In this document: one piece after another, positions 8,234-56,565 of the stretch
How positions within the stretch are numbered: position 1 is the first letter of the stretch
Layout of the letters: each line of letters begins with the position of its first letter
Origin: a virus
Taxonomy: Duplodnaviria; Heunggongvirae; Uroviricota; Caudoviricetes
IMG/VR virus record: IMGVR_UViG_3300022661_000054
DNA: 64,000 nucleotides
Direction: 5' to 3' (one strand)
Translations under genes and position numbers: made by a program
Notes under the pieces: model-generated
Database searches by the model: none
The model's input: the letters and a program-made list of their open reading frames with translations, nothing else
What the model was told of the DNA's origin: nothing

Positions 8234-8278
8234 AAGAGCTTTAAGAGAAATTTTTAATAAATCTATCTTAAAGCTCTT
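8234..8278 (-). terminator. Intrinsic terminator after the 8287..8544 gene
   Basis: A 12-bp perfect stem (aagagctttaag / cttaaagctctt) is followed by a T-rich tract on the minus strand. Confidence 0.5.
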
Positions 8279-8286
8279 GTTACTGT

Positions 8287-8544
8287 TTAGTCAGGTAAAC
8301 CGGTTATTCGCCCACCGTCAACCTCTTCATCGTAACGATGTTCATATAAAACATCTTCCGTTGTAGATTTTATAAAAAAATCTAATTCTTGTAAAGTTCT
8401 AGCGCCATCACCGACTTTAATACGAGAATACTTGATTTTGTCGTCAGGATCATATATAATTAATTCCCCTGCTTCTGGTTTAAAAGAAGATAACTTTAGC
8501 CATTCTGCCTCGGTCTTATGTAGATTACTTATTCTAGCTTTCAT
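8287..8544 (-). CDS. Anchor-only mini-protein (85 aa): the shared fibre N-terminal motif with no fibre shaft
   Basis: Sequence is MKARISNLHKTEAEWLKLSSFKPEAGELIIYDPDD..IKVGDGARTLQELDFF. A TAATG overlap couples it to the upstream gene. Confidence 0.6.
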   Translation of the reverse strand: MKARISNLHKTEAEWLKLSSFKPEAGELIIYDPDDKIKYSRIKVGDGARTLQELDFFIKSTTEDVLYEHRYDEEVDGGRITGLPD

Positions 8545-27100: not shown

Positions 27101-28201
27101 TTCACCTGCGCCATTAAGAAGTTCATCTTTAATAGCCTGAGCAGTTCCTTTAATATCATATAAGTCATCGTGCTTATGGTCAATGTCTGCAACAGTACTT
27201 ATTCTCTCATCAATACGACGAGCAACAGCATCTGGCACAAGATCGTTGTGACAAGTATCATTGGTAAGAATTACACGAACTTTGTCCTTACTAATAAGTT
27301 TATCATCAGCATACCAGTGGAAGTTGTAGTAGAATCCAAGGTATTTATCAATAGTAGATCTGTCGCCAAACTTTGACCAGCTGTCACCACTCTTGTTGGC
27401 AATAGCCGACCATATCGTGGTATATTTTCTGCCTAAACTGTCAGTAGCAAGAGCACTATGCTCCGCATCCATCTTATCATTTGAGCCTTCAATAACGCTT
27501 GTAGCATTCTCTGGAGCATATGCTCGGAATGTCATATAGTAGTAAGAATCTGAACTACCATCACCGGCATTCTGAGGAGGCAGAGCATTGATGTCTACAT
27601 GCTCAGTATTCACTCTAACTTCGCTATTGTTATAACTAACAAACATTCCGTCAACAGGAAGTACTTCATACTTATTTTGTAAGTATTTTTGACTTGCTAC
27701 CCATTCTTGAGTTGCAGCTTTTTCAGTAAGTTCTTGGACTGTTGGAATAATTTCTGTTTCAACTTTTTGAACTGTTGGTAAAATCTGTTGCTCAACTGTA
27801 GGAATAACTTCTTTTTCGAGTTTTGTTTGTACCTGCTCAACTTTAGGAGTAAGCCCAGCAACAGCAGCTTCAACATGCTGCTCAGTAGCGTAATTAGCAT
27901 CATTTTCTAATTCACTTACTTTTGTAGGATTAGCTGGATGCTCGATATTATTAATTATAGTATCAATTTCTTCTTTACTATAGTAATCAGCTAAGTCTAT
28001 CCCATCACTGTTACTATAATTAATCTGCTTTAGCGTCAATAATTCTTGGCCACTATCGTCTTTATCAAAAACGCTTAAAAAGAGCTCTGCAGTGTCTGTA
28101 CAAAGATACCAACAATCTTCTTCTAAAACTATGTTAGGGTTAAGCTCCCCATCAATAAAAAGGTCAGTAGATAGACCTCGTCTAATATTAAGCTCAGACA
28201 T
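24143..28201 (-). CDS. Large repeat-rich fibre protein (1352 aa) with two duplicated ~95-aa modules, several short motif repeats and a His-rich decapeptide array
   Basis: The module ...NNGK.LVL.NAAPDVN.YAVMNYV......TFTKFL.SRSE.YG.FNTYYL...NTWE.SKEVKLNKVE appears twice. PTKVSELENDA.YATE appears three times. KGYLTEHQ.L.EY appears five times. The array is DHEHTEYAV / EHSHANYAT / DHLHEDYAN / VHGHEEYAT / DHAHNEYIT. Confidence 0.85.
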   Translation of the reverse strand: MSELNIRRGLSTDLFIDGELNPNIVLEEDCWYLCTDTAELFLSVFDKDDSGQELLTLKQINYSNSDGIDLADYYSKEEIDTIINNIEHPANPTKVSELENDANYATEQHVEAAVAGLTPKVEQVQTKLEKEVIPTVEQQILPTVQKVETEIIPTVQELTEKAATQEWVASQKYLQNKYEVLPVDGMFVSYNNSEVRVNTEHVDINALPPQNAGDGSSDSYYYMTFRAYAPENATSVIEGSNDKMDAEHSALATDSLGRKYTTIWSAIANKSGDSWSKFGDRSTIDKYLGFYYNFHWYADDKLISKDKVRVILTNDTCHNDLVPDAVARRIDERISTVADIDHKHDDLYDIKGTAQAIKDELLNGAGEAYDTLKELGSLIDNNKDAIEALTTIATGKADVDHEHTEYAVVEHSHANYATTDHLHEDYANKVHGHEEYATIDHAHNEYITEDTLDKKGYLTEHQSLEAYAKKDELFSRDYNDLNNKPEIPSTEGLATEEFVNTAINNIELPEAELYKVDFNAPDYAEAVEAYNNGKVLVLVNAAPDVNSYAVMNYVSEKYITFTKFLMSRSETYGAFNTYYLSPANTWEVSKEVKLNKVEITEDNKLNVGKQELDVATKEFVTQKIAEAELADQDVDLSAYYTKSEVDVLIPAVPTKVSELENDAKYATEEYVDNAISNIEYPTKVSELENDAGYITAKDIPEVNLSNYYNKSETEALVNEVINGIDIPDTSSFITMEDVEAKGYLTEHQNLSEYAKKSEIPSIEGLASEDFVRSEIAKAELNGGEVTEEELDNLLANYYNKTEVDNKFKELEIPSIEGLATEEFVNNAIAGIEIPETELFVVDFAAPDFTAAINAYNNGKFLVLANAAPDVNGYAVMNYVRSDMITFTKFLTSRSEAYGSFNTYYLHSDNTWEISKEVKLNKVEANADGEVNGELTSIRIGKEVYSLPNTDGLASEQYVNEQIFALEIPEVPTNVSAFTNDAGYLTEHQDLSEYVKKTELPVVDGFATKEELNNAIEAIEHPVVNLDNYVTKDEIEGFISEVPAEYITEGELESKGYLTQHQDISHLATKKEIPDVSNFALKSDIPDVSKFISEIPSEYITEEELTAKGYLTEHQSLEDYSTTSEIANAIATAVDVKANDTPFTTAKFISNPIGDFKVGDNIKDLKIAEILAKLLGLTDEQPGQEPENPDEPEGIIDNLIANELPMYQIAAGGQLEEVAFNYKTMTVEESTKAPDTAGFYQVIDGDTVNESGYQQFTSYENELFYMIALPNSLDLNSDKLQVSVKIWDNGSKEWKNTSPDFASQLTCDKDLISETLESCGLDVPTVPNDYTLWVNLDSVNNGEKYRYIIKEVI
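25502..25789 (-). repeat. Intragenic direct repeat, copy 2 of the ~290-bp module
   Basis: DNA-level similarity to 26402..26689, for example ttcccaggtatta...taagaattttgtaaatgtaat. Confidence 0.7.
26402..26689 (-). repeat. Intragenic direct repeat, copy 1 of the ~290-bp module
   Basis: See the copy-2 entry. The two copies encode paralogous ~95-aa segments. Confidence 0.7.
26861..27007 (-). repeat. Five tandem 30-bp repeats encoding the HxH decapeptide array
   Basis: Five consecutive decapeptides each contain H-x-H-x-(E/D/N)-Y-A. Confidence 0.7.
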
Positions 28202-29737: not shown

Positions 29738-30598
29738 TTACAGATATAGCTTATACTTATTTTGATTTTTAGCTGCGATGACGGTATTCTGCATAAGCAT
29801 TGCAATTGTCATAGGTCCGACACCACCAGGTACCGGAGTAATCCATGATGTTTTGCGTGAAACATTTTCAAAATCGACATCACCACAGAGCTTGCCGTCT
29901 ACACGGTTAATTCCGACATCAATAACGACAGCGCCGTCTTTAACCATATCTGCTGTAATAAACCCAGGACTGCCGACGGCAACCACAAGAATGTCAGCCC
30001 GACGACAAACTTCTGTCAAGTCATTAGTTTTAGAATGCGCTGTTGTGACAGTGCCGTCTTTGTGAAGCAATAGCATGCTCATTGGCTTTCCGACAATATT
30101 AGATCTACCTACAACAACACACTCTTTGCCAGCTACTTCAATATTATAGTAGTCAAGCATTTCCATAACACCTGCGGGGGTACAAGGAAGAAAATCATAT
30201 TCGCCGATCATAATTTTACCAACATTTTTTGGGTGAAAGGCATCTACATCTTTGTATGGACTAACTGCGTTCAAAACAGCTTTCTCGTCATAACCAGGTG
30301 GGAGGGGGAGCTGCACAAGAATACCATCAATTGCTTCGTCAATGTTTAAGTCGTAGATAAGTCTAATAAGCTTTTCCTGGCCAATATCCGCAGGTAAATT
30401 AAACTGTCTTGAAATAATACCCGTCTCCTCACAAGCCTTTTGCTTATTTCTTACATATACCTGCGAAGCTTGGTCTTCACCAACTAAGATAACAGCCAAA
30501 CAAGGATAAACTCTTTTTTCTTTTAGTTGTTTAACTTCTTCGGCTACACGCTCCTTAACCGCTTTTGATACAACCTTACCATCAATAATATTACTCAT
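29738..30598 (-). CDS. folD: Bifunctional 5,10-methylene-tetrahydrofolate dehydrogenase / methenyl-THF cyclohydrolase
   Basis: Full-length FolD (286 aa). Sequence reads NIIDGK...LAVILVGEDQASQVYVRNK...VVVGRSNIVGKPM. The YxxxK-type substrate motif and the GRSxIVGxP NAD(P)-binding motif are both present. Confidence 0.9.
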   Translation of the reverse strand: MSNIIDGKVVSKAVKERVAEEVKQLKEKRVYPCLAVILVGEDQASQVYVRNKQKACEETGIISRQFNLPADIGQEKLIRLIYDLNIDEAIDGILVQLPLPPGYDEKAVLNAVSPYKDVDAFHPKNVGKIMIGEYDFLPCTPAGVMEMLDYYNIEVAGKECVVVGRSNIVGKPMSMLLLHKDGTVTTAHSKTNDLTEVCRRADILVVAVGSPGFITADMVKDGAVVIDVGINRVDGKLCGDVDFENVSRKTSWITPVPGGVGPMTIAMLMQNTVIAAKNQNKYKLYL

Positions 30599-30609
30599 AT
30601 AAAACTCCT

Positions 30610-30975
30610 TTAATTATATATAAATTCTTCACACCTGTAACCATTCTCTCTAAGCCATTCAGCTACTAGATGCCTATGACAGAAATCATTAGGCTTTTCA
30701 TAACAAACAAGAGCTATATCAACGCCAGAATGCGGATCTATCATTTCAGATATGACCTCATCTGCATTTAACTTGTTTAAGACCTGCTCTTTAAAACATT
30801 TTATATAATAATCATTATCACCAGTGCGTTTCCATTCCATAAAGAAATCATACTTAGGCGCTAACTTCTTATACTGAAAGCCTTTATAACCTGCTGGAGC
30901 CTTACCACAAATAGAAAAAGTAATAATATCTTTAGGTAATTTTTTAAGTTTTGCAAAATAGGTAGTATAAATCAT
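30610..30975 (-). CDS. DUF488-like small protein (121 aa)
   Basis: The C-terminal stretch ALVCYEKPNDFCHRHLVAEWL matches the DUF488 signature (L.C.E.....CHR..la.yL). Length fits. Confidence 0.5.
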   Translation of the reverse strand: MIYTTYFAKLKKLPKDIITFSICGKAPAGYKGFQYKKLAPKYDFFMEWKRTGDNDYYIKCFKEQVLNKLNADEVISEMIDPHSGVDIALVCYEKPNDFCHRHLVAEWLRENGYRCEEFIYN

Positions 30976-31466
30976 TCTCTCTCAAATCCTTTATATTTAT
31001 TCTCTACAGCAAAAAATCTTCCATGATATTTTTTACATTGCTCTATAACTTCTTTAGTTTCCGTTTTTGTGCTACAATAAAAATTAAATAGCGTCTTAGG
31101 GCCTACCTCAATATAGTCATGCGGAATATGAATAAGCGTTTCGTGAATAACTACTTCGTAATGTTTTGGAACAACAACTTCAATCTTCCACAACCTATCT
31201 TTCTGAATTAAGTCCAAAATAGCATAGCTAATCCAAACGCCTAAAGCATTAGCAATGGCTGTAGCAATAACCGTAATCTCTAAAGGGAGATTGGCAGTCT
31301 GTTTAACTACTACTGTATAAAAAGAATAAGCAATAACATTGGTTAGTACATTAATACCTCTGCCATATCTGACAGTACAGATACTTTTTGTACTAGATAA
31401 AATAACGTTAGTTAAACTAATTAAAAAGAAATATAGAGTTGTCATTGAAAACAAAGTATTTAACAT
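30972..31466 (-). CDS. UPF0316/DUF2179-like membrane protein
   Basis: Start MLNTLF..., multiple TM helices, a basic loop (TVRYGRG) and an AYALG-like motif (AIANALGVW) resemble the Bacillus/Clostridium UPF0316 family. Confidence 0.55.
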   Translation of the reverse strand: MLNTLFSMTTLYFFLISLTNVILSSTKSICTVRYGRGINVLTNVIAYSFYTVVVKQTANLPLEITVIATAIANALGVWISYAILDLIQKDRLWKIEVVVPKHYEVVIHETLIHIPHDYIEVGPKTLFNFYCSTKTETKEVIEQCKKYHGRFFAVENKYKGFERE

Positions 31467-31552
31467 GTAACGCCTCCTAACTAATATTTATCAATATATA
31501 ATACAATAAAAGCCTAGGATATTTTAACCCTAGGCTTTTAGTTATTTAAAGG

Positions 31553-32443
31553 TTATTCTTCAATCTCGTCTCTAATATCTAGGATAGCTGAACCTTCACC
31601 CATAACCTGAGGAAGCTTGCCATCCCACTTTTCGTAAAATTTAGATTCAAGTACTTGGTCAGTCAGAGATTGAGTAAGAAGCTTATTAGCAGCTGCTTCT
31701 GCTTCAGCAGCAATTTTAAGAGCTTTTGCATCTGCCTCTGCCTTTGCAATCTTTGTCTCATTATCATAATCAGCCTTAAGCTTTGCCTGTTCGGCTACCA
31801 TCTTGTCCTCTACTGCTTTTTCAAAAGAATCAGAAAAATCGATATTAGTAAGCACTACAGCTTCTACACTGATAAAGTAGCCCTCGTCAACAGCTGCTTT
31901 GACTGCTGCTTCTACCTCAGGCGAGATAGCAGCTCTATTTGCAATAATATTCATAGCTTTATGTGAGGAAAGTACAGCCTTAGTTTTTTCAATAACAATA
32001 GACTGAATACGTCCCTGTAGTACCTCAAGAGTACCATACTGAGTAGCAATATCAGTTACCTTATCAGGAACGACTCGGTACTGAAGTGTCATGGCTACAT
32101 CCATAGTTTGTGCATCACTAGAATAAGCAGCAGTAATAATTTCTACATTCTGCACCTTAGTATCATACTTTGAATAAGAAGTGGTCATCCAAAGGTCAAA
32201 ATTCGTGCCTGCGTCTCTAGTACCTGTAATCTTACCTAAAGTTTTAACTACAGCGATCTCGCCAGAATTCACAGTACGAAACGAGAACGGTACCGCAATA
32301 AAGCTAATACAGAAGATAACAGTTAAAATAATACAAATTACCTTACCAGCCGCAATGTCATTCTCTGAGCAGTAATAAACACCAATGCCGCAGCCAATAG
32401 CCAAGACCGCTAACAAAATACCTACAAAAAATCCAATTGCCAT
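31553..32443 (-). CDS. SPFH / band-7 (stomatin-prohibitin-like) membrane protein
   Basis: N-terminal TM helices are followed by NSGEIAVVKTLGKITG...QNVEIITAAYSSDAQTMDVAMTLQYRV, which is typical of the SPFH core. The C-terminus has an Ala/Glu/Lys coiled coil. Confidence 0.8.
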   Translation of the reverse strand: MAIGFFVGILLAVLAIGCGIGVYYCSENDIAAGKVICIILTVIFCISFIAVPFSFRTVNSGEIAVVKTLGKITGTRDAGTNFDLWMTTSYSKYDTKVQNVEIITAAYSSDAQTMDVAMTLQYRVVPDKVTDIATQYGTLEVLQGRIQSIVIEKTKAVLSSHKAMNIIANRAAISPEVEAAVKAAVDEGYFISVEAVVLTNIDFSDSFEKAVEDKMVAEQAKLKADYDNETKIAKAEADAKALKIAAEAEAAANKLLTQSLTDQVLESKFYEKWDGKLPQVMGEGSAILDIRDEIEE

Positions 32444-32506
32444 TTTTCATAACTCCTTAAAAATTATTTATATTATATATTAAAATCAAGTCAAAGACTT
32501 GTTATT

Positions 32507-33037
32507 TTAATTTAACAAAAAAGTATCAGTAAACCAGATTAATCTATCTCTAAAAGTATCTAAAGTTGAATCATTATGAATAATCGCATCAAAATTATAA
32601 TTATCCATAGAAGTTTCAGAAACGTGCTGTTTCTGCTTTTCTGTTAAACCGCTTTCAAAATTAGGACGTTCAACTCTAAGAAGCTTAGTAGGAAAATTCT
32701 TTTCAACCTGGGTAAATTCAATCGGATAACGACAATCAGGAATCAAAACATAATCCCACTCATTCTCAAAAAACTTAAGGATATCAACAATAAAATCTAC
32801 CCAATAAGATGGCTGTTGTGAAGAAATCACATCTGTTCCTACATATTGAAGAAGCGTTCGACCTTTCTCATCTTTTTGGCCATCCCAGTTAAAGAAGTTT
32901 GTACATACAAACTTTACAAGATCAGCATAATGAGTAATCAGCACTCTATTACCTTTAGCTTCTAAGTAATCTTTAATAATACTAGCGGCAGTATCTTTAC
33001 CATGTTGTGCTTTTGCACTAATACAACAAACTTTCAT
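32507..33037 (-). CDS. P-loop nucleotide kinase, dNMP-kinase-like (T4 gp1-like)
   Basis: The Walker A-like stretch ISAKAQHGKDT sits at the extreme N-terminus, as in phage deoxynucleoside-monophosphate kinases. Size is 176 aa. Confidence 0.6.
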   Translation of the reverse strand: MKVCCISAKAQHGKDTAASIIKDYLEAKGNRVLITHYADLVKFVCTNFFNWDGQKDEKGRTLLQYVGTDVISSQQPSYWVDFIVDILKFFENEWDYVLIPDCRYPIEFTQVEKNFPTKLLRVERPNFESGLTEKQKQHVSETSMDNYNFDAIIHNDSTLDTFRDRLIWFTDTFLLN

Positions 33038-35689: not shown

Positions 35690-36082
35690 TTATTTATTAT
35701 CTGATTTAGTTAATTCTTCTACTTGCTCAAAATAAAATTTAATTTTATGTTCATGAGCCTCGACTAAGCCATAGTCTAAACCAACCTTATATATGTAATT
35801 ATCACGAAAAAGCTTACTTGGTATTTCTTCAATCATTTTTCTAAATACTTCTAATGAATGGGAACGTTTGTAGTGATTATCCCTACGACATGCAGGCATA
35901 TAGTTTTCAAAGCACTCAATTTGTTCTTCTGTATAGCTACCAAACCGTTCTCTTTGGACTGGAATAAGATGATCTACTTGCATATCTTTATATTCAATTT
36001 TCTTACCACAATATGCACAATGCCCGTCATATTTATTATAAACTGCCTCACGAACTTTTTTAGGTATTGTCTTGCGTGCCAT
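35690..36082 (-). CDS. HNH endonuclease
   Basis: Sequence GHCAYCGKKIEYKDMQVDHLIPVQRERFGSY...ACRRDNHYK carries the HNH motif with Cys pairs. Confidence 0.85.
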   Translation of the reverse strand: MARKTIPKKVREAVYNKYDGHCAYCGKKIEYKDMQVDHLIPVQRERFGSYTEEQIECFENYMPACRRDNHYKRSHSLEVFRKMIEEIPSKLFRDNYIYKVGLDYGLVEAHEHKIKFYFEQVEELTKSDNK

Positions 36083-36100: not shown

Positions 36101-36352
36101 TTAAAATAATGTCCACCAATAATCGAAATGTTTTTTATAGTTGCTAAAGTTTCCTATATTGTAAATTCTGCGAATTTTTCTATTACTGATCTTTCTAAGA
36201 TATTTCGCGTAGCCAGGAGTTTTTGACGCAGTATATTTTATATATCTACCTGTGTCCTCATTAAACCATACACCCGCACCATAGCTATTCTTAGTCTGCC
36301 TATAAGTTTTCATCAAGCGTTTTTTACGATTTTGTGCCTGTTTATATGCCAT
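36101..36352 (-). CDS. Small basic hypothetical protein (83 aa)
   Basis: ORF with very basic (K/R-rich) composition. Confidence 0.55.
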   Translation of the reverse strand: MAYKQAQNRKKRLMKTYRQTKNSYGAGVWFNEDTGRYIKYTASKTPGYAKYLRKISNRKIRRIYNIGNFSNYKKHFDYWWTLF

Positions 36353-36437
36353 AACATAAACTCCTTTACTTACTATTTAACTACTTATATTATACAATAA
36401 AAAATAAGCACTCTAATTTTACATAGAGTGCTTATTT

Positions 36438-37070
36438 TTACTTAAAATCTTCCCACTTAATCTTAACAATGACACGCTTGCCACAACGGTCTCGCATTTC
36501 TACCTTAGGTCTACCTACAAGACCTTCCATCTTAGCAGTTCCCATAGTAGAGTCAGGATGACCTTTTACAAAGTCTACACCTTCCTGAATAGTACCTTCA
36601 AAAATGATAGGAACAACATCAATTCCAAAAGACCTTGCGATATCTTCTACAGAGTCTCTGGACTGGTAATTACCACAAATAAGCACATCAAAAAGAATAA
36701 AGCTTACATCACTTCTATAGGCTCCGCCTTTCTGGATCTTAGGACCATAGCCTTCACCAAAAAGAATTACAGGAGTCTCACCAAACTTCTCCTCAAAAAT
36801 CTGCTCAGCTTCATTAGTCTTAAAAGTAGCTAAAAGATAATCAAGAAGAAAAACAGGAATCTGTGCTTTATCAGTTCTACCACCAAAAGAAATGGTATGA
36901 CCATCCCAGTACACACGAATATTGGTTCCGTCTACCTTTTCAGTAAACTGCCAAATATTATCCTTAAGAAACTCTACTGTCGGATTTCTAAACTCACCTT
37001 CAAGCAGCTTCTTAGTCCCGTCCATGTCTCTTTTCCAAAGAGTTTCAATCTTATTATATTCTACCATCAT
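36438..37070 (-). CDS. Small ATP-dependent polynucleotide ligase-like nucleotidyltransferase (KxDG motif I)
   Basis: FTEKVDGTNIRVYWDG is ligase motif I (KxDGxN). Size is 210 aa. Confidence 0.55.
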   Translation of the reverse strand: MMVEYNKIETLWKRDMDGTKKLLEGEFRNPTVEFLKDNIWQFTEKVDGTNIRVYWDGHTISFGGRTDKAQIPVFLLDYLLATFKTNEAEQIFEEKFGETPVILFGEGYGPKIQKGGAYRSDVSFILFDVLICGNYQSRDSVEDIARSFGIDVVPIIFEGTIQEGVDFVKGHPDSTMGTAKMEGLVGRPKVEMRDRCGKRVIVKIKWEDFK

Positions 37071-37094
37071 AAAATTATGTCTCCTTTATTAAAA

Positions 37095-37418
37095 TCAGTA
37101 TGCTCTTGCTCGCGCTTCATCTTCAGTATCAAACACATCAACACCAAGCTTGCCTGTAAAAGCTGACTCTCCAGTGGCATCTATAGTATAGCTGATTTCA
37201 AAATCTGGCCCTTCCTCAACAAGAAGATGCTTACAAGTAACTGATAATATATCAGCACATCTAACTCTATCATTTATATCTATGTAATAAGCTTCAGTGG
37301 GAAGAATAAGAAGCCTACCATTTTCTTCAGCGTCTTCGTAAGCTGCAAGTTTATCAAGAGCTTTCTGAATATCTATATCCTCTTTAATAGTGTTAATAGT
37401 TCTAGTTAATCTATCCAT
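37095..37418 (-). CDS. Hypothetical protein (107 aa)
   Basis: ORF. Confidence 0.6.
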   Translation of the reverse strand: MDRLTRTINTIKEDIDIQKALDKLAAYEDAEENGRLLILPTEAYYIDINDRVRCADILSVTCKHLLVEEGPDFEISYTIDATGESAFTGKLGVDVFDTEDEARARAY

Positions 37419-37588
37419 ATCTTTGGTACCTCATATAATCTATTTTAGTTTTTAAAAGCATTATGAAGTGCTTTAACTGCATCATAGTTAGGTATTACAA
37501 TATCAGGTGCTGCTTTATAGCTCTTAATATCATAATTTCTTCTTCTGTTTGATCTTGCATAGGTACATTTACAAATAATTTTTCATAA

Positions 37589-37834
37589 TTAACCCTCTCT
37601 CCAAGTACACAAAACTGCAGCTATGATAGCAATAAGTATAAGTACCACTACTAAACCAATGCTAATCCATATGGGTGAAAATACCCACCACCAACTCCAG
37701 TTAATTACCTTAAACAGCTTTAAAATAACAAATAAAGCAGTAAGTATAAATATAAAATCAAGTTCTTCTTTAGTTTCTTCAACATTTTTCTGATTAGTTT
37801 CTTCTTTAGACATTCCCCAAAATAACCCTTTCAT
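37589..37834 (-). CDS. Small membrane protein (81 aa)
   Basis: Two hydrophobic helices. Overlaps the upstream gene by 29 nt. Confidence 0.5.
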   Translation of the reverse strand: MKGLFWGMSKEETNQKNVEETKEELDFIFILTALFVILKLFKVINWSWWWVFSPIWISIGLVVVLILIAIIAAVLCTWREG

Positions 37835-38831
37835 TAACGCTCATAAGAAATTCATTTATTTTATCGTAGTCAGGCTTGTCAGGTAAACTTGAATTTTCAG
37901 CTGCATAAAGCATTCTACGTTCAAATTCGTTTACTATATCATAAAATCCAGGAATTGGCTGTCCGTCTTCATCTAGAAATTTACCATATCTAAAACTTAA
38001 TAAATATTCAAGGTCTTGTTCGCGGTAAGTGATAATTTCTTCTTTTTCAAGAATATCAATGCACATCAAATAAAGTCTGATTAAATGCATCATATGTTTG
38101 CCAAGTCTACCATTATCAATAGCATTCTGATTTCGATGTCCAATTTTATCATAACCTGAGACTACATTCTTCATATCTGACCACATGCTTTTATAATCTC
38201 TAAGAGGATAGTGAGTAAGATGAAGGTCAATAAAGATTTCTTTATCTAAATCTTCTTGATCTGAATCGTCTAAATAAAGATTAATATAGTCATCTTCACC
38301 GAAACATTTATAAGTGTCGGGCCAAACGTAGCTAGCAGTCATAATACTATTTAGTATATGTTGTTCTCTTTCCGCTTGTGCCACAGTTCGTGCTGCTTTA
38401 TTGTCTAATCGACGGAGCTGTGCTGTTGCATACCCACCAAAAGACTGTACTGCTTTTTTAGAAAGAAATAACTTTCTATTATCTATAAGCTCCTGACCGA
38501 TAGGAGAAAGATAGAGATAATGTTCAGGTTTCAATCCAAGCATTTCAATAACATTTGGATTCGCGTTTGTAAGCAATGATACAATTTTTCTAATAGAATA
38601 AATAGTTGTATCAGTTTCGTTATTAACTACCTGTTCAAAGTTAGCTGCACCAAGTATTTCTGCTTTAGTGTTAAGAGCTACGCCACGAATATCTATATCT
38701 GAGCCTTCTACATTAGTTCCATAAGCATGCGAGCCGCCAAGTCCGAGTAAAATAATATTGTTGCCTAAATGAGGATTTGTTTTAAGGAAATCATATTCTG
38801 GTGTTTTTAAAATTGCTTTAAAATCAGTCAT
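37806..38831 (-). CDS. Pol-beta-superfamily nucleotidyltransferase domain protein (341 aa)
   Basis: LLGLGGSHAYGTNVEGSDIDIRGV matches the minimal NTase motif GS.....SD.D. Confidence 0.7.
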   Translation of the reverse strand: MTDFKAILKTPEYDFLKTNPHLGNNIILLGLGGSHAYGTNVEGSDIDIRGVALNTKAEILGAANFEQVVNNETDTTIYSIRKIVSLLTNANPNVIEMLGLKPEHYLYLSPIGQELIDNRKLFLSKKAVQSFGGYATAQLRRLDNKAARTVAQAEREQHILNSIMTASYVWPDTYKCFGEDDYINLYLDDSDQEDLDKEIFIDLHLTHYPLRDYKSMWSDMKNVVSGYDKIGHRNQNAIDNGRLGKHMMHLIRLYLMCIDILEKEEIITYREQDLEYLLSFRYGKFLDEDGQPIPGFYDIVNEFERRMLYAAENSSLPDKPDYDKINEFLMSVNERVILGNV

Positions 38832-39244
38832 TATTCTTCCTCCACTTGATTAACAATATCATCAGCGAATTCAGCAAAAGTATCGATATAAGAAAAATAA
38901 TCGCACATGAAAGAATGTTTCTCTCTGTATACCCACCTCTCAACAATACGAGCTTGCTTATTAGTGAGATTATAATTCTCTAAAATGTATTCAACAACAT
39001 CTTCAGTGAGTTTTTCATTTAGCTCTAGCTGCTTTTGTCTTTTAAGAGCACGAGCCTCTTCTACTCTCTGATTGTGTTCTTCTACCATTTCTCGATTACG
39101 TTTTACAGAAAGCTCTTCATCAAAAACATAATTTTCAGGTAGTCTAGTTAAAATTTCTTCAGTAAATTCACCGGGGTAATGATAACCTACTGAATATTTA
39201 CCGGTATCATAGTCTTTTCTAATATCTTCAATATCTTTATACAT
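38831..39244 (-). CDS. Hypothetical protein (137 aa)
   Basis: ORF coupled by an ATGA junction to the downstream gene. Confidence 0.65.
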   Translation of the reverse strand: MYKDIEDIRKDYDTGKYSVGYHYPGEFTEEILTRLPENYVFDEELSVKRNREMVEEHNQRVEEARALKRQKQLELNEKLTEDVVEYILENYNLTNKQARIVERWVYREKHSFMCDYFSYIDTFAEFADDIVNQVEEE

Positions 39245-39258
39245 ACTTTACCTCCAAA

Positions 39259-39522
39259 TTATTTAGTAAGGTCTTCTCGGATCATACGACGAATATTTCT
39301 AAACAAAGCATTATAACTTTCTCTACAAACGCTACCATACCACAAAGGATGCGACATCAAATGTTCCTTGTCATCATCAAGTCGAATTTCAGTGCCGTCA
39401 CGTTTATGAATCTTATGACATTCTTCACAAATATAATATTTATCTCTGGTAAAGAATCTTACAAGCAGATTTGGAAAGTGTTTTGCTTTAAATCTAACAT
39501 CATAGTAAATTCTTTTTAACAT
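39259..39522 (-). CDS. Small zinc-ribbon protein (87 aa)
   Basis: CEECHKIH plus H...C. RBS is GGAGGCA. Confidence 0.6.
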   Translation of the reverse strand: MLKRIYYDVRFKAKHFPNLLVRFFTRDKYYICEECHKIHKRDGTEIRLDDDKEHLMSHPLWYGSVCRESYNALFRNIRRMIREDLTK

Positions 39523-39553
39523 AGTCTGCCTCCATAATTTTTAATAAAACAAA

Positions 39554-39585
39554 AGTTCCATTGATATATTATACAATCAATGGAA
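39554..39585 (-). terminator. Stem-loop (11-bp stem) with a T-run immediately upstream of the 39259..39522 RBS. Possible terminator or attenuator
   Basis: gttccattgat / atcaatggaac, then TTTTGTTTT on the minus strand. Confidence 0.4.
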
Positions 39586-40079
39586 CCTAAATTTAAGTAT
39601 TTTATTAAATATATGTAAAAGATATGAATAATAAAAGTAGACAAGCAATTAACAACAGTTATTATTCATATCTAGTAATAGGAAGTTTTATATAGAAACA
39701 GTTTACAGCTACAAAAATATTATAACACAAATTATTGTATTTGTAAACTGGTTTTTGTTTTTGGAGAAGATAGATATGAATAGCTTATAGTTGTTGGGTT
39801 GTTTACATGAATTTATTTAGGAGTACTTAATACAAGTCGTAAAAGGTGTGATGCAATTTAGGGGGATTGCATATTTAAACTTATATTACTATAAAGCTAT
39901 CCATATCTATTTCTATAAATAATGTTGAATATGATAAGAGGTGACTGATAGTCACAAGAGATATTATAACATGACAAAAAGAATTTGTAAACACCTTTTT
40001 ATATTATTTTTAAATATATCTAAAAGGCTCCTATTTAACTTCTAGAGCATTTTATATATTAAGAATGATTCTATATATC

Positions 40080-43123: not shown

Positions 43124-43445
43124 TCGAATCTCCTATTGTTTCTTCTATAAGATTATTAATCTTATCAATTAGATATAAAGCACTCGCCTCTTCATTAGTA
43201 TTATACGGTGCATAACATTGCTTTAGTTTATTAATAAAGGTTTTAACGCCTACTGTTTGTTGTGTAATTATAAAGTCTTTTAGGAACGCTATATCTTTAG
43301 AAAAGTTTTTAATATCCTCATCTTGAACTTCTTTAGGTTTATCAAACCAAAGCTCTCTACCAGCGCGTTGACCATAAAAGAAATCAAACTTATCTAATAT
43401 ATCTAAAGCTTTAATTATCTCATTATTATACTGTTCTGTGCTCAT
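43107..43445 (-). CDS. Hypothetical protein (112 aa)
   Basis: ORF. Confidence 0.65.
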   Translation of the reverse strand: MSTEQYNNEIIKALDILDKFDFFYGQRAGRELWFDKPKEVQDEDIKNFSKDIAFLKDFIITQQTVGVKTFINKLKQCYAPYNTNEEASALYLIDKINNLIEETIGDSNEYYM

Positions 43446-43804
43446 TGGCCATGTTCTCCTGTATGTAGTGAATCAAAAGTAATCTGCTCCCAGTCTTCTT
43501 TACTATCTAATGTTACATTAACTTTAGGAACCATTTTGCTACCACATTCGGGGCAGAAGTTATATCTATGCTTAGGAACGTGTTTTTTACAAACACTGCA
43601 CTCCATCATAGTTGTTGAATAATAATCCCAATGACCTAAAGTAGCTTTCTTATAGCCAAGTCCATAAATAATTTTGGCATGCTGCTGAGGCGTAGAGCAA
43701 TGACCGTCTCTATCTATACAAGTACATGTAGGATATCTGCTACACAAGTCCTTCGCTATTTCGTTAATCTGTCGCTCTTTTAGAGCTTCAACTTCTTCAA
43801 ACAT
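43442..43804 (-). CDS. Zinc-ribbon protein (120 aa)
   Basis: CSVCKKH...CPECGSK. Confidence 0.65.
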   Translation of the reverse strand: MFEEVEALKERQINEIAKDLCSRYPTCTCIDRDGHCSTPQQHAKIIYGLGYKKATLGHWDYYSTTMMECSVCKKHVPKHRYNFCPECGSKMVPKVNVTLDSKEDWEQITFDSLHTGEHGQ

Positions 43805-43805
43805 T

Positions 43806-44084
43806 TTAAATTAAACCCTCCTTCGCAGCTTGTACAATTTTATCAGTAAATTCTATGTGGTCTTTATCTACAAATACGGTAGGAAATCTATCACCGTTAA
43901 GAACAGCTACAATTTCATCAACTGAACCATAAGGTTTAAGCTTACTTAAAACATTAGCATACTCACAAGTATTATCACATTCTTCTGTATAAGAATGACC
44001 TCCTCTATTCATACAATCAAAACAAGGACTATACATATTAACACTCACTTTCTGGTTTACAGTGCTTGCAAGGTCTACAACCAA
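43806..44084 (-). CDS. Hypothetical Cys-rich protein (92 aa)
   Basis: ORF. Confidence 0.6.
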   Translation of the reverse strand: MVVDLASTVNQKVSVNMYSPCFDCMNRGGHSYTEECDNTCEYANVLSKLKPYGSVDEIVAVLNGDRFPTVFVDKDHIEFTDKIVQAAKEGLI

Positions 44085-44198
44085 AAGTAATGCCTTCTTC
44101 TGCTGAGTTAAACCATACTCTATTTTCTTCTTTAATATTCTTTACATGATAACAATCTTCTCTACAGAGAATCTTATATTTCTTTGAACATACGTATC

Positions 44199-44855
44199 TC
44201 ATTTAAACTTAGCTCCCTTACATCCTTCAACAGTTAGACCTTTCATAGCAGTACCACAGTTAGGACAGAACTTGTAAGTATCATTTGCCTTCTGGTTACA
44301 CTCAGAGCATACAACTAACTTAAACATGAAGTCAGGACACTCCTCATCAGTCTCAAGTCTCCAGGTCGCTTGCTTATTAGAAAGTCTAGAAATCCTATTA
44401 ATAGCATCTTCAGGAGTATGTCCATCCCAGGTAGGAGCTCTGTCTAGTTCTTTTACTTTGAACATATCCCAATAAGGGTCAATGTCATAATGATAAGTTG
44501 CCTGACCTTCTGGTGTTTCAATACCTACTATAAACATTCCTTCGAACATATCACCAGTATCATGTAACTTACTCTTCCAAGCTTTGTCTGGAAACATATT
44601 ACAAATTACTGAAAACAGAACTGCTCTATGATGATAGAGCTCATTAAATGTATGATAACCATCTGACAAGTCACCAATACCAGTTTTTGGAACTTCTACT
44701 ACATTTACTATACGTGCTTTTGCCAACATAGTAAGAAAATGCTTATGCTCATGAAGATGCATTTGCCTTTGAATGCTATTTGAGTGTGGATTATTTCGTT
44801 TACTATGTATTACTTCTGTTTCCAGTTCACTAATATCTATATATCTTTTTTTCAT
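44199..44855 (-). CDS. Hypothetical protein (218 aa) with a C-terminal zinc ribbon
   Basis: CSECNQK...CPNCG. Confidence 0.7.
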   Translation of the reverse strand: MKKRYIDISELETEVIHSKRNNPHSNSIQRQMHLHEHKHFLTMLAKARIVNVVEVPKTGIGDLSDGYHTFNELYHHRAVLFSVICNMFPDKAWKSKLHDTGDMFEGMFIVGIETPEGQATYHYDIDPYWDMFKVKELDRAPTWDGHTPEDAINRISRLSNKQATWRLETDEECPDFMFKLVVCSECNQKANDTYKFCPNCGTAMKGLTVEGCKGAKFK

Positions 44856-45149
44856 CTATTCACCGTCCATTCTACTACCACAGTACGGACAATAAGGAAG
44901 TTCATTAGGCGTCTTACCGAAAGGAATTAGTCTATGACAGGATGCACACTTAATATCCCATACACCATTATTAGGAAAGCCTGTCCACTTACTATGTTTT
45001 ACCGTGTCTGCTTTGGGCGCATTATTCAGTAGATTAATAAAGTAACGCTCTGCCTCTTCAACTTGAACCATGCCGCATTCATCTGTACCAGGAATCAAGT
45101 TTCTCTGTACTTGCAGAATAATAGGTCCTACATCTACTAACTTATTCAT
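44856..45149 (-). CDS. Zinc-ribbon protein (97 aa). The start is re-assigned from the ORF-track start at 45350
   Basis: The internal ATG at 45149 is preceded by CTTAAGGAGGCAGTTG and overlaps the upstream stop by 8 nt. The longer ORF-track form would overlap the upstream gene by about 200 nt. Confidence 0.6.
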   Translation of the reverse strand: MNKLVDVGPIILQVQRNLIPGTDECGMVQVEEAERYFINLLNNAPKADTVKHSKWTGFPNNGVWDIKCASCHRLIPFGKTPNELPYCPYCGSRMDGE

Positions 45150-45792
45150 CAACTGCCTCCTTAAGCCACATCTCAATAATTTCTTGAGTGCCAGGATTCT
45201 TCTTATTTTGGAAGAATCTACATTCATCATATACTTCGCAATAAGAACATTCTGTTTCGTTCCTAAATAAAAGTTCAAAGCCAAGCTTAGACATAGAGTC
45301 TTCTCTCTTAACAATCTCTGATTCGCACCTGGAGCAATACTTATTATCAAACCAAGTCATCCACGGAGAATCATCATGCTGTCCGTGGTCATCAATCCAC
45401 TTAGCTAATTCTTCTATAGACATAGATTTAAATTTAGTATATCTAGTTTTCATATTATTTCTCCTTAAAGACGATATCGCTCGTTCCGCCGCTTCCCTAG
45501 TAAATCTGTACCAAGAAATTAACTGGCCGCTGGATACATGATTAATAGGTACTAATCGAAATTCGTCACAACAGCCATTATTATCATAGTAGTTATAAAC
45601 TAATGGCAGTCCTTCTCTATTATACTTGCCGGTCCACGGCACTTCAATAATACCATAGTCTGCCCAAAGGAATACAACCCAAAGCTTTTCTAGAGAATCG
45701 AGATAAGCTTTTGTTTTGCCATTATTCTTAAGAATCTTCTTTCGCCAAGTCAACACTGATAATATATCCTTCCCTATGTTTTTCCGGAACAT
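45142..45792 (-). CDS. Hypothetical protein (216 aa)
   Basis: ORF. Its start may be downstream of the listed one. Confidence 0.6.
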   Translation of the reverse strand: MFRKNIGKDILSVLTWRKKILKNNGKTKAYLDSLEKLWVVFLWADYGIIEVPWTGKYNREGLPLVYNYYDNNGCCDEFRLVPINHVSSGQLISWYRFTREAAERAISSLRRNNMKTRYTKFKSMSIEELAKWIDDHGQHDDSPWMTWFDNKYCSRCESEIVKREDSMSKLGFELLFRNETECSYCEVYDECRFFQNKKNPGTQEIIEMWLKEAVDE

Positions 45793-45946
45793 AATCCATA
45801 TCTAAAGGATTTTCTTTTCTTTCTTGTTCAGTTTTACAAGAATACCAATCATCATCTAAAGGAGTTATCTCATCGTTCCACCGATCTCCACCAAGCAAAG
45901 TTGCCATTATACATCTTCCTTTCTGCTTCCACAATGGCAGAAGCAA
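45728..45946 (-). CDS. Hypothetical small protein (72 aa)
   Basis: ORF. Confidence 0.5.
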   Translation of the reverse strand: MLLPLWKQKGRCIMATLLGGDRWNDEITPLDDDWYSCKTEQERKENPLDMDYVPEKHREGYIISVDLAKEDS

Positions 45947-46254
45947 GTATCAGTTAAATTCCAAAGTCCACTCTTTCGACAGAAGTATTCTCCAATGCCG
46001 TTTTTGACCCATTCAGATTTATACTGGCAGTCTTTGCATCTTACTATTTCTTCTACATCTGCTGTAGGTCTTTCATCTATAACATCACAAGCAAGAATTA
46101 GACCGTTTTTCCAGTCTTCCCCTTCATGCCAATACATCGGATCTTGTAGACGTTTATTTATCTCATAAAGAACAGACTCTTTTTCTATATATTCTTTCTT
46201 ATTCACTTGTCTTCCTCCGAGTCCACATCTTCCTCTGTTAAACCAAAGTAACAA
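45907..46254 (-). CDS. Cys-rich hypothetical protein (115 aa)
   Basis: CKDCQYKSE...CFCHCG. Confidence 0.6.
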   Translation of the reverse strand: MLLWFNRGRCGLGGRQVNKKEYIEKESVLYEINKRLQDPMYWHEGEDWKNGLILACDVIDERPTADVEEIVRCKDCQYKSEWVKNGIGEYFCRKSGLWNLTDTCFCHCGSRKEDV

Positions 46255-46317
46255 CCGTCGCTTCGGCAGGATTCCTCACAGTAGCCTTCTTCTTTTAATA
46301 TAATACAGTCTCTACAG

Positions 46318-46686
46318 TTAATCCATTGATCCATTGTTATCTTTCTCCTGATTAAACTTAGTGCCACAGTTAGGACAGTAGTTCATTGTTTTCCAAGGGA
46401 AAGCATGCCAGCATTCTGAGCACTTATAAAACATCTTACCTTCATGTACACTAGCAAAAGTAAGTTTACCATATCTAATAGGCACTACCTCTGCCATCGG
46501 TTCAAGAGCAACCAGTTCAATAGCATCTTCATAATCTGCTTGATACTTCTGCATGCCTTCCATTTTATGGATTAAAGCGGTTCTTTCTATATATTCTTTC
46601 TTTACGGAAGGCTCTGGAACATAGTCTGGATTTACTTTATTAAAGCTTTCTGTGTGTTTAGTCATCGTCGTCATGCCTCCTACCAA
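46318..46686 (-). CDS. Zinc-ribbon protein (122 aa)
   Basis: CSECWHAF...CPNCGTKF. Confidence 0.65.
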   Translation of the reverse strand: MVGGMTTMTKHTESFNKVNPDYVPEPSVKKEYIERTALIHKMEGMQKYQADYEDAIELVALEPMAEVVPIRYGKLTFASVHEGKMFYKCSECWHAFPWKTMNYCPNCGTKFNQEKDNNGSMD

Positions 46687-47684: not shown

Positions 47685-48833
47685 TTAAATAGAATATTTA
47701 TCCTTAAGTTTTTTAAATGCCTCAAGATACTCTTCCCATTTGTTCTCATTCCACTTAGAAGTAAAGTCTTCCATAGTTACCTCTCGGTCATAATTATAAT
47801 ACAGTAAGCCCTGATAAATTTTCGGCAAAGCTTGAACTAATCTGGCATAGTCACCTTTCGATAACTTACCAGATATTTCTCTACAAGCTTTAGCAAGCTG
47901 GTTTCCTATATTAGTAAATCCGTTAATAAGCTTCTGAACTTTTTCAAGTTCTTCCTTATAGTCCGAGGCGTAGCAAAGAAACTCTTCAGTCTCATTAGCA
48001 AGTATTACGCGAAGTAATAGCTTGGTAGTAATCACATTATTATTACGAGTATAGTGAGCCAGGATATAAGAAGGAGACTTTACCTTAACCCTATTGAAGT
48101 TAGCATCTGCTACTACGAATCCTTCTTGATCCCAGTCGAATTCCTCAGTTACTTTAATACATTCTTCTAGCGAAGTGAGAGGAAAGACTTTAGGAAGCTT
48201 AAACTTACCAAGTCCAAGAGCACCAGCAATCAGAGGCGAGCAGTTAAACTCTTCTCCAGTAAACTTATTGCGTGCACCGAGAAAATAGAGTTCCGGTTCT
48301 TCGTAAGGAACTACTACTCTATTATAAGGTCCTACTAGTTCGAACATATAGGTAAGGTTCTGATCTAAGCTATCAACAAAAGCACCGTAACAGTTATAGT
48401 ATTTACTAAGTACTTCTAAGAAGTAGTTTCCGAAGTCGGGCATCTTTACACCGCCTAGCTCGGCTTTGAAGGCATCAATAGTTCCATTAGTGCTGACATG
48501 CCATCTATCATCATACCAGATCTTGATCAGAGAACCATCAATCTTTTCAGTAACGAAAGAAGTAGCCCAGTCGATCTCAGGTACGTAAGATTCACCATAG
48601 TTTCCGAACTTATTAAATGCCCAGCAAACAGGAGTTTCCCACTCACCTTTACGGAAGATGATACCTCTTGCTTCTCTAACTATAGTATAGGAGAAGTCAG
48701 ATCTAATCTGGTCATAACTAAACATTACATAGGGCCCATCTTCTTTAATCTTAATGTAATAAGGTTCTTCAACAAGTACCTGTTCCCAGTCTTCATGTCT
48801 GGCGCAGAAGTAACCAATATCAGTAGTAAACAT
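47685..48833 (-). CDS. RNA ligase 1-like (T4 RnlA-like) ATP-dependent RNA ligase
   Basis: The 382-aa size is close to that of T4 Rnl1. Motif I is TEKIDGSLIK (KxDG). The N-terminal region FSYDQIRSDF...REARGIIF resembles my recollection of Rnl1 (FSYNYASYSDW...ECRGIMF). Confidence 0.75.
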   Translation of the reverse strand: MFTTDIGYFCARHEDWEQVLVEEPYYIKIKEDGPYVMFSYDQIRSDFSYTIVREARGIIFRKGEWETPVCWAFNKFGNYGESYVPEIDWATSFVTEKIDGSLIKIWYDDRWHVSTNGTIDAFKAELGGVKMPDFGNYFLEVLSKYYNCYGAFVDSLDQNLTYMFELVGPYNRVVVPYEEPELYFLGARNKFTGEEFNCSPLIAGALGLGKFKLPKVFPLTSLEECIKVTEEFDWDQEGFVVADANFNRVKVKSPSYILAHYTRNNNVITTKLLLRVILANETEEFLCYASDYKEELEKVQKLINGFTNIGNQLAKACREISGKLSKGDYARLVQALPKIYQGLLYYNYDREVTMEDFTSKWNENKWEEYLEAFKKLKDKYSI

Positions 48834-51898: not shown

Positions 51899-52345
51899 TT
51901 AACCTTCAACTACCTGCACAGTAATAGTTGCCTGCACATCGTTAAATAGCTTTGCCTTAATCTTATAAGTGCCGAAAGCTTTAATAGGACTTTCCATAGA
52001 AAGCTTTTTCTTATCTACTTCTAAGTTATATTCCTGTTTAAGCTGCTGCGTAATTTCTTTTGCAGTAATAGCTCCGTAGAGTTTATTATCCACGCCAGCT
52101 TTACGTTTAAGTACGAGAGTAATAGTTTCTAGCTGTTTAGCAGTTTCTACTGCGGCAGCCTTTTCTATATCGTACTTATGCTGTTTTGAAGCTTCTCTAC
52201 CTCTTAGCTCATTCAGTGCTTCTGCATCTGCCGCAATAGCAAGTTTTTTCGCAAACAAGTAGTTTCGAGCGTATCCGTCGGATACATCAACTACCTGGTC
52301 CTTCTTACCTTTTCCTTTAACATCTACAAGTAAAATAACCTTCAT
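51899..52345 (-). CDS. rplI: Ribosomal protein bL9
   Basis: MKVILLVDVKGKGKKDQVVDVSDGYARNYLFAKKLA... is a canonical L9 N-domain. Length is 148 aa with a helical linker and a C-terminal domain. Confidence 0.9.
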   Translation of the reverse strand: MKVILLVDVKGKGKKDQVVDVSDGYARNYLFAKKLAIAADAEALNELRGREASKQHKYDIEKAAAVETAKQLETITLVLKRKAGVDNKLYGAITAKEITQQLKQEYNLEVDKKKLSMESPIKAFGTYKIKAKLFNDVQATITVQVVEG

Positions 52346-56067: not shown

Positions 56068-56565
56068 TTATTTCTCCTTTACATACTTATAACCGTTTAT
56101 AATAAGAGTATCTATGTTTTCTAGTTTATCCGGTTCAAGCTCGAATTCTACATCGATCTCTCGTAGCTGCACCTTAAACTTTTCGCAGTTAGTAATAGTC
56201 AATGTCTGCGGTTCTAAGGAACCAATAGCTTTACCTACTGCGGTACCATGAACATAGAAAGGCGTATCAGTAATCTTCTTCGCCATTTCTTTAATATACT
56301 CTTCAGTCAGTTCCGGTGGATCTCCGGGAGTTATTCTATATCCATAACCACATTCAGGACAAGCCCACCAATCACCAAGTAGCTCTAACTTAGTATTACA
56401 TCTTACGCAATATTTATCTGAGGAACTGGACTTAGTACTATCAGACATCTGAGCCGCATTAGTACTAGGTAATATGTAATGACACTTCTCACATACCTCA
56501 GAACCATTGTCTAGTACTATCACGTATCCGCCACATACTGGGCAGCTCTTATTTATATAATACAC
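56068..56565 (-). CDS. Double zinc-ribbon protein (165 aa)
   Basis: CPVCGG...CEKCH and CVRCN...CPECG. Confidence 0.65.
   Translation of the reverse strand: MYYINKSCPVCGGYVIVLDNGSEVCEKCHYILPSTNAAQMSDSTKSSSSDKYCVRCNTKLELLGDWWACPECGYGYRITPGDPPELTEEYIKEMAKKITDTPFYVHGTAVGKAIGSLEPQTLTITNCEKFKVQLREIDVEFELEPDKLENIDTLIINGYKYVKEK

Follow-up and report, generated by a model that had tools for sequence, protein, structure and literature searches.

An RlaP nucleotidyltransferase and a nucleotidyltransferase-domain-only ligase in a probable RNA-repair locus of an uncultured jumbo phage

Why a tailed phage should encode two RNA-ligase-like proteins and a Pol-beta-superfamily nucleotidyltransferase (NTase) on one strand, and whether these proteins form a repair system, is the question raised by the virus record IMGVR_UViG_3300022661_000054 (IMG/VR, Caudoviricetes), of which a stretch of 64,000 nucleotides (nt), here called the window, was analysed. 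A preliminary description of this DNA had proposed a counter-defence RNA-repair module made up of a KxDG ligase-like protein of 210 amino acids (aa) (36438..37070, containing FTEKVDGTNIRV), an NTase of 341 aa (37806..38831, containing GGSHAYGTNVEGSDIDIRGV) and an HNH endonuclease of 130 aa (35690..36082), with a separate T4 Rnl1-like RNA ligase of 382 aa (47685..48833, containing TEKIDGSLIK). The four open reading frames (ORFs) are all present on the minus strand, with every motif that had been quoted for them. The analysis presented here indicates that the locus is probably a phage counter-defence unit for the repair of RNA, most likely tRNA, of the published type that combines an RlaP protein with an RNA ligase, carried by a jumbo phage of ~220 kb. 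The RNA-repair context is supported; however, the system is a known one and not new, because the association of RlaP with ligases has already been published and is the source of the family name.

The 341-aa protein is a member of the RlaP family (PF10127, expectation value (E) 6e-20, 72.4 bits against a cutoff of 23; phrog_388, E 2.4e-55), and all of its close homologues carry the PF10127 annotation. Its residues 31-341 align with residues 8-330 of T4 NrdC.11 (hhalign probability 95.9%; blastp E 4e-10, 23% identity), which is itself an RlaP (PMC12776372). The residues G32-G33-S34, D45, D47 and D74 are invariant in 22 homologues, and G33-S34, D45, D47 and D74 are matched in NrdC.11; from this alignment, D74 would be the third catalytic Asp of the Pol-beta NTase set. 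The proposal of a Pol-beta-superfamily NTase was thus correct, and among the families to which it might have been assigned (CCA-adding, MNT, CD-NTase or RlaP-like), the protein groups with RlaP and not with antibiotic or MNT nucleotidyltransferases. An identity as an MNT, antibiotic NTase, CCA-adding enzyme or CD-NTase was rejected, these families having only sub-threshold generic matches (PF01909, 19.6 bits vs 21; PF18765, 14.7 bits vs 26.9) and, for MNT, a lone PDB similarity at E 0.027 over a generic motif of 37 residues, and the Pfam scan gave no PolyA_pol/CCA match. Neither phmmer nor a profile search found a solved relative of the protein in the PDB sequence set, in which PfRlaP is not detectable either.

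The name RlaP stands for 'RNA-ligase-associating Pol-beta'; it was given for the linkage of these proteins to RNA ligases (PMC12776372), a pairing described in 2016 (Burroughs & Aravind, as relayed by PMC7824862 and PMC12776372). In a 2021 survey, RlaP was the most prevalent repair nucleotidyltransferase of jumbo phages, mirroring the distribution of their ligases (PMC7824862), and a 2025 preprint reported that PfRlaP and PaRlaP add one or two nucleoside monophosphates (NMPs) to RNA 3'-OH ends (PMC12776372). These enzymes favour the 5' half of a cleaved-tRNA mimic, leaving a 3'-OH product that suits 5'-phosphate ligases, and the crystal structure of PfRlaP has an N-terminal NTase domain and a C-terminal helical domain (PMC12776372). 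By analogy, the RlaP of the window is predicted to add one or two NMPs to the 3'-OH of a broken RNA.

The 210-aa protein, referred to below as the mini-ligase, is a predicted ATP-dependent RNA ligase that consists of the NTase domain only. It covers the whole profile of the RNA_ligase family (PF09414, E 2.7e-19, 70 bits against a cutoff of 27), also matches phrog_548, and contains motifs I (K45-x-D47-G48), Ia (R65), III (E106), IIIa (F127-D128), IV (E182-G183) and V (K203-x-K205); in 73 diverse homologues, ten of these residues (K45, D47, G48, E106, F127, D128, E182, G183, K203 and K205) reach a conservation of at least 90%. The preliminary description had allowed that the protein might lack motifs III to V and be unrelated to ligases, but these motifs are present, and its recognition as a KxDG ligase-like protein holds. 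Although direct phmmer of the protein against PDB sequences gave no match, a family profile found T4 Rnl2 (1s68/2hvq) as the best match, at E 3e-17 and from motif I to motif V, followed by NgrRnl (Rnl5) and Pab1020 (Rnl3) at ~1e-6. The AlphaFold2 model is a single compact domain (predicted local distance difference test score, pLDDT, 96.7, with the 73 diverse homologues, used in place of a discarded model from 20 close homologues with pLDDT 38.7), and its best fold match is again 1s68, the adenylyltransferase domain of T4 Rnl2 (E 1e-10, template modelling (TM) score 0.71), with further matches to NgrRnl, REL1 and Rnl3 enzymes. The Rnl2 NTase domain is therefore the nearest among ligase families in sequence and in predicted fold.

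Only 5 residues follow motif V in the mini-ligase, which has no flanking domain. The alpha-helical C-terminal domain of the Rnl2 type is missing, the alignment with 2hvq stopping at residue 234 of 334, and motif I reads KVDG and not the KxHG of the Rnl2 type, with D47 at least 90% conserved in the family. Because the C domain is absent and KxDG replaces KxHG, the protein is Rnl2-like in its catalytic domain and outside the Rnl2 family by architecture, and its score with the NCBIfam equivalog TIGR02307 was 28.2 bits, below the cutoff of 197. Membership in Rnl5 (DraRnl/NgrRnl) was also rejected: an OB-fold module N-terminal to the NTase domain is absent, the motif I Lys being at residue 45 with no OB or PHA02142 match, and TIGR02306 gave 19 bits vs 151. 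An exhaustive search recovered relatives in 2,925 clusters at 50% identity, and the short size is a family trait and not a truncation, because most of the best 150 relatives have 205-225 aa. Some homologues are split after motif I by an intein and/or a LAGLIDADG homing endonuclease (L125 8804-10504; P0253, P0247, P0264), and inteins with LAGLIDADG were the only additions among the longer family members, which yielded no informative fusion. No paper was found that characterises biochemically a member of this ~210-aa family. The six structurally characterised families of ATP-dependent RNA ligases all combine an NTase domain with a distinctive flanking domain (PMC7261155). T4 Rnl2 deprived of its C domain self-adenylylates and seals a pre-adenylylated nick but fails composite nick sealing, which is also lost in DraRnl without its N domain; the Rnl2-specific C domain is needed for nick recognition and step 2, and the KxHG motif I is shared by Rnl2 and DraRnl (PMC1807946).

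The 382-aa protein was correctly described as a separate T4 Rnl1-like ligase (gp63/RnlA-like), with matches to RNA_lig_T4_1 (PF09511, E 1.4e-14, 54.9 bits against a cutoff of 28.3), to phrog_562 of the T4 gp63/Rnl1 type (E 1.4e-47, positions 30-368 of 377) and to T4 Rnl1 itself (2c5u, E 9e-9), with the motif I Lys aligned. It spans positions 34-367 of 373 in TIGR02308, at a score of 70, below the equivalog cutoff of 242. Its gene is ~9 kb upstream of RlaP in the window and 0.5-10 kb from RlaP in all relatives. A third ligase, a canonical ATP-dependent DNA ligase of 432 aa (PF01068 and PF14743), is encoded ~4.5 kb past the high-coordinate end of the window (L233 5014-6312). Because of this separate enzyme, the mini-ligase was rejected as the replicative DNA ligase of the phage, which in total encodes three covalent-nucleotidyltransferase ligases. 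Between the RlaP unit and the Rnl1-like gene, the minus strand also carries small zinc-ribbon proteins (43442-46686, with others at 56068-56565), including a NOB1-like zinc ribbon, a WDGH domain with a zinc ribbon and double zinc ribbons.

RlaP and the mini-ligase are predicted to belong to a single transcription unit on the minus strand, formed by p87 (39259..39522), p137 (38831..39244), RlaP, TM81 (37589..37834), p107 (37095..37418) and the ligase, with successive spacings of 14, -1, -29, 170 and 24 nt. The stop codon of p137, a protein without Pfam or PHROG match, overlaps the RlaP start codon by 1 nt, and TM81, a small membrane protein of 81 aa (phrog_1374, E 2.9e-19), overlaps the 3' end of RlaP by 29 nt. 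Upstream of p87, the first gene, an ORF-poor gap of 556 nt (39523-40079), without Rfam match, holds two minus-strand sigma-70-like promoters (39719..39991) with 11/12 consensus matches and an extended -10 TG, which are consensus matches only and not evidence of function. At the other end, the unit is predicted to close with an intrinsic-terminator-like hairpin (36400..36439), also on the minus strand, which starts at the ligase stop codon and has a 16-bp stem followed by a T-run (RNA fold -21.6 kcal/mol, z = -6.15 vs shuffles).

The HNH endonuclease lies downstream of this hairpin, together with p83 (36101..36352, minus strand), a small, very basic, lineage-specific ORF without family match that lies 18 nt upstream of it. 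The protein itself is a stand-alone HNH enzyme (PF01844, E 2.9e-6, 27.8 bits against a cutoff of 21.4; phrog_2118, E 4.8e-34). HNH-Rnl2 fusion proteins have been mentioned (PMC7824862); however, the 120 closest relatives of this protein are all stand-alone, of 123-143 aa, with no ligase fusion. Since a strong terminator intervenes and the relatives stand alone, the suggested inclusion of the HNH in the repair unit is not supported.

The linkage between RlaP and the mini-ligase was followed in related loci, and all of the loci recovered from sister lineages (L004-L011, L070-L073, L080, L235 and L236) show the order from RlaP to ligase. Because the order is retained in all of them although RlaP identity is only 77-79%, the linkage is more than chance. 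Only ~30 nt lie between the two genes in L004/L006/L011 and L008-L010; L005/L007 have one gene of 132 aa in this place, and L235 and the window have two, which in the window are TM81 and p107. Additionally, the 170-nt gap between TM81 and p107 (37419..37588, minus strand) contains what is left, frameshifted and shortened (MK/KLFVNVPMQDQTEEEI...), of a 125-aa gene whose intact copy lies between RlaP and ligase in L235. From these variable inserts and the gene remnant between a constant pair, it follows that the interval is a hotspot of small-gene turnover of which the flanking pair is retained. The most compact arrangement was found on L235, a contig binned to a metagenome-assembled genome, where an island (7405-12300) encodes in order a Thg1-like protein (PF04446, E 1.8e-29), RlaP, the 125-aa protein, a TM81-like protein, the mini-ligase, a 104-aa protein and an Rnl1-like ligase that is 64% identical to that of the window and lies 0.5 kb after the mini-ligase, so that the Thg1-like protein, RlaP and both ligases fall within 5 kb.

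In more distant phages, with RlaPs 54-67% identical, a gene for a CCA-adding enzyme adjoins RlaP in ~25 loci (cluster C1; L012 11163-12362, L039 12338-13072 and ~23 others), often followed by a calcineurin-like phosphoesterase, and ligases of the OB-Rnl5 type and Thg1-like genes are also found near these RlaPs. Because CCA-adding, Rnl5-type, phosphoesterase and Thg1-like neighbours recur, the RlaP subfamily sits consistently among functions of tRNA-end repair. Genes of NAD salvage (NAMPT, PRPP-synthetase-like, isochorismatase and ADP-ribosylglycohydrolase) were also seen near the loci of the CCA type.

The small genes of the unit were considered as possible partners. Homologues of p137, with 47-57% identity, are directly upstream of RlaP in L004-L011 and L070-L080, and occur only in this jumbo-phage clade. 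On the other hand, p87 was found only in this exact lineage and p107, a 107-aa ORF without family match, has confident matches only in L001-L003; because they are confined to this exact lineage, p107, p83 and p87 were rejected as conserved partners. TM81 does not stand between RlaP and ligase in L004 and L008 and was rejected as a dedicated repair component, because among 80 loci selected by TM81 itself only 6 have RlaP, a PF09414 ligase or Thg1 at a distance of up to 10 kb; as an accessory gene lying in between, it probably takes no part in the chemistry of repair. Proteins of the TM81 type (phrog_1374, with the motif LKL..VI.WSW.WVLSP.WI) are encoded by a very common phage gene, which in unrelated phages repeatedly adjoins RlaP, a PF09414 ligase or Thg1 (L235 9749-9997; L064 14320-14532; L206 10001-10192; L188 10001-10210; L050 9510-9710), an adjacency that may reflect either enrichment or coincidence.

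For the locus as a unit of RNA repair, the following course of events is proposed, with the activity of RlaP and the three-step chemistry of the ligases taken from the literature. Ribotoxins of the host or of a competitor would cut tRNA, and some of them would also trim 1-2 nucleotides from the new 3' end; the cut ends would be healed by an activity supplied from elsewhere; RlaP would restore one or two nucleotides at the 3'-OH; and an ATP-dependent ligase that uses 5'-phosphate ends, either the co-transcribed Rnl2-like mini-ligase, the Rnl1-like enzyme 9 kb away, or both, would seal the break. In this scheme we infer that RlaP and the mini-ligase act on one shared substrate, that this substrate is tRNA, that a ligase without a flanking domain can carry out the full sealing reaction, and that healing comes from another source.

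Several results weigh against this proposal. No Pnkp-like kinase/phosphatase and no 2H, HD or Metallophos enzyme was found with Pfam, PHROGs and NCBIfam in the scanned ORFs of the window and 10 kb on each side, a scan that took in nearly all ORFs of at least 100 aa in the 28-64 kb interval and several others, with some large, probably structural ORFs of the first 28 kb unscanned and ~140 kb of the phage genome outside it. The window likewise contains neither tRNA genes nor Rfam RNAs, and the boundaries of the predicted operon were drawn from consensus scans alone. Outside this lineage, a mini-ligase usually has no RlaP close by: of 80 viral and 80 genome loci selected by the mini-ligase, just 9 and 2, respectively, have an RlaP of the same type within 10 kb, and Lak-A1 has a mini-ligase with no RlaP within 20 kb, both genes nonetheless occurring in Lak phage records. 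The mini-ligase, moreover, resembles in its lack of a flanking domain the T4 Rnl2 stripped of its C domain, which fails in the composite reaction (PMC1807946).

In one alternative, the real partner of RlaP would be the Rnl1-like enzyme, and the mini-ligase would serve another purpose, for instance closing nicks of RNA duplexes or RNA:DNA hybrids, its adjacency to RlaP reflecting a shared accessory region. In T4, it is the Rnl1 type that is specialised for tRNA broken in the anticodon loop. The Rnl1-like gene of the window encodes a full-length protein, the part that matches the T4 Rnl1 C domain included; this gene stays close to RlaP in all relatives, and most mini-ligase loci are without a nearby RlaP. 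Ligases of the Rnl1 type also favour single-stranded ends extending from stems, and those of the Rnl2 type nicks in duplexes (PMC1807946). Against this, it is the mini-ligase and not the Rnl1-like gene that remains downstream of RlaP in every relative, and the predicted transcription unit holds RlaP and the mini-ligase without Rnl1, which leaves this alternative rather unlikely. An alternative that we regard as less likely still makes RlaP and the ligase neighbours without functional relation, in an early or accessory region rich in morons, taking part in different processes and in no RNA-repair pathway. The interval between them does gain and lose small genes (TM81, p107, the 125-aa remnant and the 132-aa gene), no end-healing enzyme was found locally, and the mini-ligases of other phages have DNA methylases, an AAA ATPase or replication genes as neighbours; nevertheless, the retention of the RlaP-to-ligase order in the sister lineages, the repeated proximity of the RlaP subfamily to other tRNA-repair enzymes and the independent establishment of the RlaP-ligase association in the literature make such a reading very improbable.

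The remaining alternatives concern what the mini-ligase can do. It could be an incomplete ligase, capable only of self-adenylylation or of the step-3 sealing, or dependent for RNA recognition on a partner in trans, for which RlaP with its helical C-terminal domain is a candidate. The flanking domains of all six characterised families (PMC7261155) and the loss of composite nick sealing in T4 Rnl2 without its C domain and in DraRnl without its N domain (PMC1807946) point in this direction, as do the single compact domain of the model and the consistent size of the family at ~205-225 aa. In contrast, a family of 2,925 clusters with strictly conserved catalytic residues and occasional inteins looks self-sufficient and under selection, and neither an end-healing enzyme nor a trans-acting domain adjoins the mini-ligase as a conserved partner across 160 loci (80 viral and 80 genome loci); incompleteness is therefore held to be doubtful, with a probability between those given to the two preceding alternatives. 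The same architecture also allows a more ambitious reading, in which these natural NTase-only enzymes would represent an uncharacterised seventh architectural class of RNA ligase, widespread in phages, that either ligates alone or, in this lineage, relies on the co-transcribed RlaP to recognise RNA, the two proteins together making up an 'add-and-seal' machine for the restoration of trimmed tRNA. This is offered as a speculation, unlikely as it stands.

Returning to the counter-defence repair unit of the RlaP-plus-ligase type, its composition had been said to differ from that of the T4 paradigm, and this was not supported: T4 itself encodes Rnl1, Rnl2 and RlaP (NrdC.11; PMC12776372), and the window RlaP aligns with NrdC.11 end to end, so the set is no departure from T4. 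Relative to the T4 repair set (Rnl1/gp63, Rnl2/gp24.1, Pnkp and NrdC.11), the window has the same three families, as an Rnl1-like ligase, an Rnl2-like NTase domain and an NrdC.11-like RlaP. The real differences are that no Pnkp was detected locally, that is, in the scanned ORFs of the 64-kb window or 10 kb on either side, and that the Rnl2-like ligase lacks the C-terminal domain, with KxDG in place of KxHG in motif I. In this lineage, a predicted operon also joins RlaP to the Rnl2-like gene; where rnlB and nrdC.11 lie in T4 was outside this comparison.

The likeness to the published RlaP-plus-ligase systems is that a jumbo phage encodes a PF10127 NTase, with its GS...DxD...D set, near an RNA ligase that is ATP-dependent and of the 5'-phosphate type, the 3'-OH product of RlaP being directly usable by this class of ligases. 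The differences are that the partner in the window is an Rnl2-like ligase without flanking domain, with two small genes in between and no healing enzyme adjacent, whereas the characterised PfRlaP and PaRlaP are bacterial and come from RtcB-RtcA operons (PMC12776372). Among ligases, the closest counterpart is T4 Rnl2(1-249) (PDB 1s68), which is the best match in sequence and fold, has all six nucleotidyltransferase motifs and is of similar size; however, it is an engineered truncation without composite nick sealing, and the window protein is a natural stand-alone member of a ~210-aa family. Genes of this family, 30-48% identical over the full length, are carried by Streptomyces phages (Muntaha gp209), Campylobacter phage vB_CjeM_WX1, the crAss-like cr116_1/IAS virus and Lak megaphages, labelled as 'RNA ligase' in the Streptomyces, Campylobacter and crAss-like members and unannotated in the Lak copies. 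Unlike the window, Muntaha, the Campylobacter phage and Lak-A1 have no RlaP annotated or detected close to the ligase.

The phage from which the window derives is an uncultured jumbo phage of ~220 kb, because an identical copy of its RlaP protein is found on 22 metagenomic contigs, 17 of which are of 0.2-1 Mb (for example, ENA ERZ27248370 k141_4000472, 220,267 bp). A megablast search against 50,697 deposited phage records found no near relative, the sole match being 76 nt of an HNH gene. The window has a GC content of ~35%, and its minus strand holds nearly all of the longer ORFs. The host is probably a gut bacterium of the Clostridia type, as indicated by an M23 peptidase with SLH domains, by the closest isolate matches, which are one Clostridioides phage and one Clostridium phage, and by the relatives, which are mostly on contigs binned with gut Clostridia, Lachnospiraceae and Oscillospiraceae. 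This peptidase has three SLH repeats (66-1046, minus strand) and adjoins an Amidase_3 gene just outside the window (L231 11020-11994); the pair is likely a lysis or cell-wall module, pointing to an S-layer-bearing host of the Clostridia type.

The rest of the window includes two giant minus-strand ORFs of 2,584 aa (9236-16990, with an LRR_5 match) and 1,352 aa (24143-28201), which presumably encode structural or tail-fibre proteins, and near them a family 2 glycosyltransferase (GT2, 5462-6259) and a CotH-like protein (3323-4639). A metabolic or accessory run on the minus strand (29738-33037) encodes FolD (tetrahydrofolate dehydrogenase/cyclohydrolase), a DUF488-N3a protein (121 aa, phrog_2450), an SPFH/Band-7 protein and a deoxynucleoside monophosphate kinase; an SPFH protein is also a neighbour of the mini-ligase in L121-L123. 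Additionally, the minus strand has genes for a full-length, phage-encoded ribosomal protein bL9 (51899-52345; Pfam L9_N, E 4.5e-21, and L9_C, E 4.5e-26) and for a D12-class N6-adenine (Dam-like) DNA methyltransferase (58664-59629, E 3e-60).

With this locus, an uncultured jumbo phage of the gut, whose hosts are probably Clostridia, joins the known carriers of the RlaP-plus-ligase toolkit; in its lineage, the pair is kept together while the intervening DNA turns over. The one modestly new point is the existence of a natural and large family of NTase-only ligases. If the mini-ligase ligates alone, ideas of what RNA ligation minimally requires would change, and the protein might be a useful small enzyme; if it needs RlaP, this would be the first evidence that the restoration of nucleotides is physically coupled to sealing. 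In other respects, the locus is an ordinary instance of a described system.

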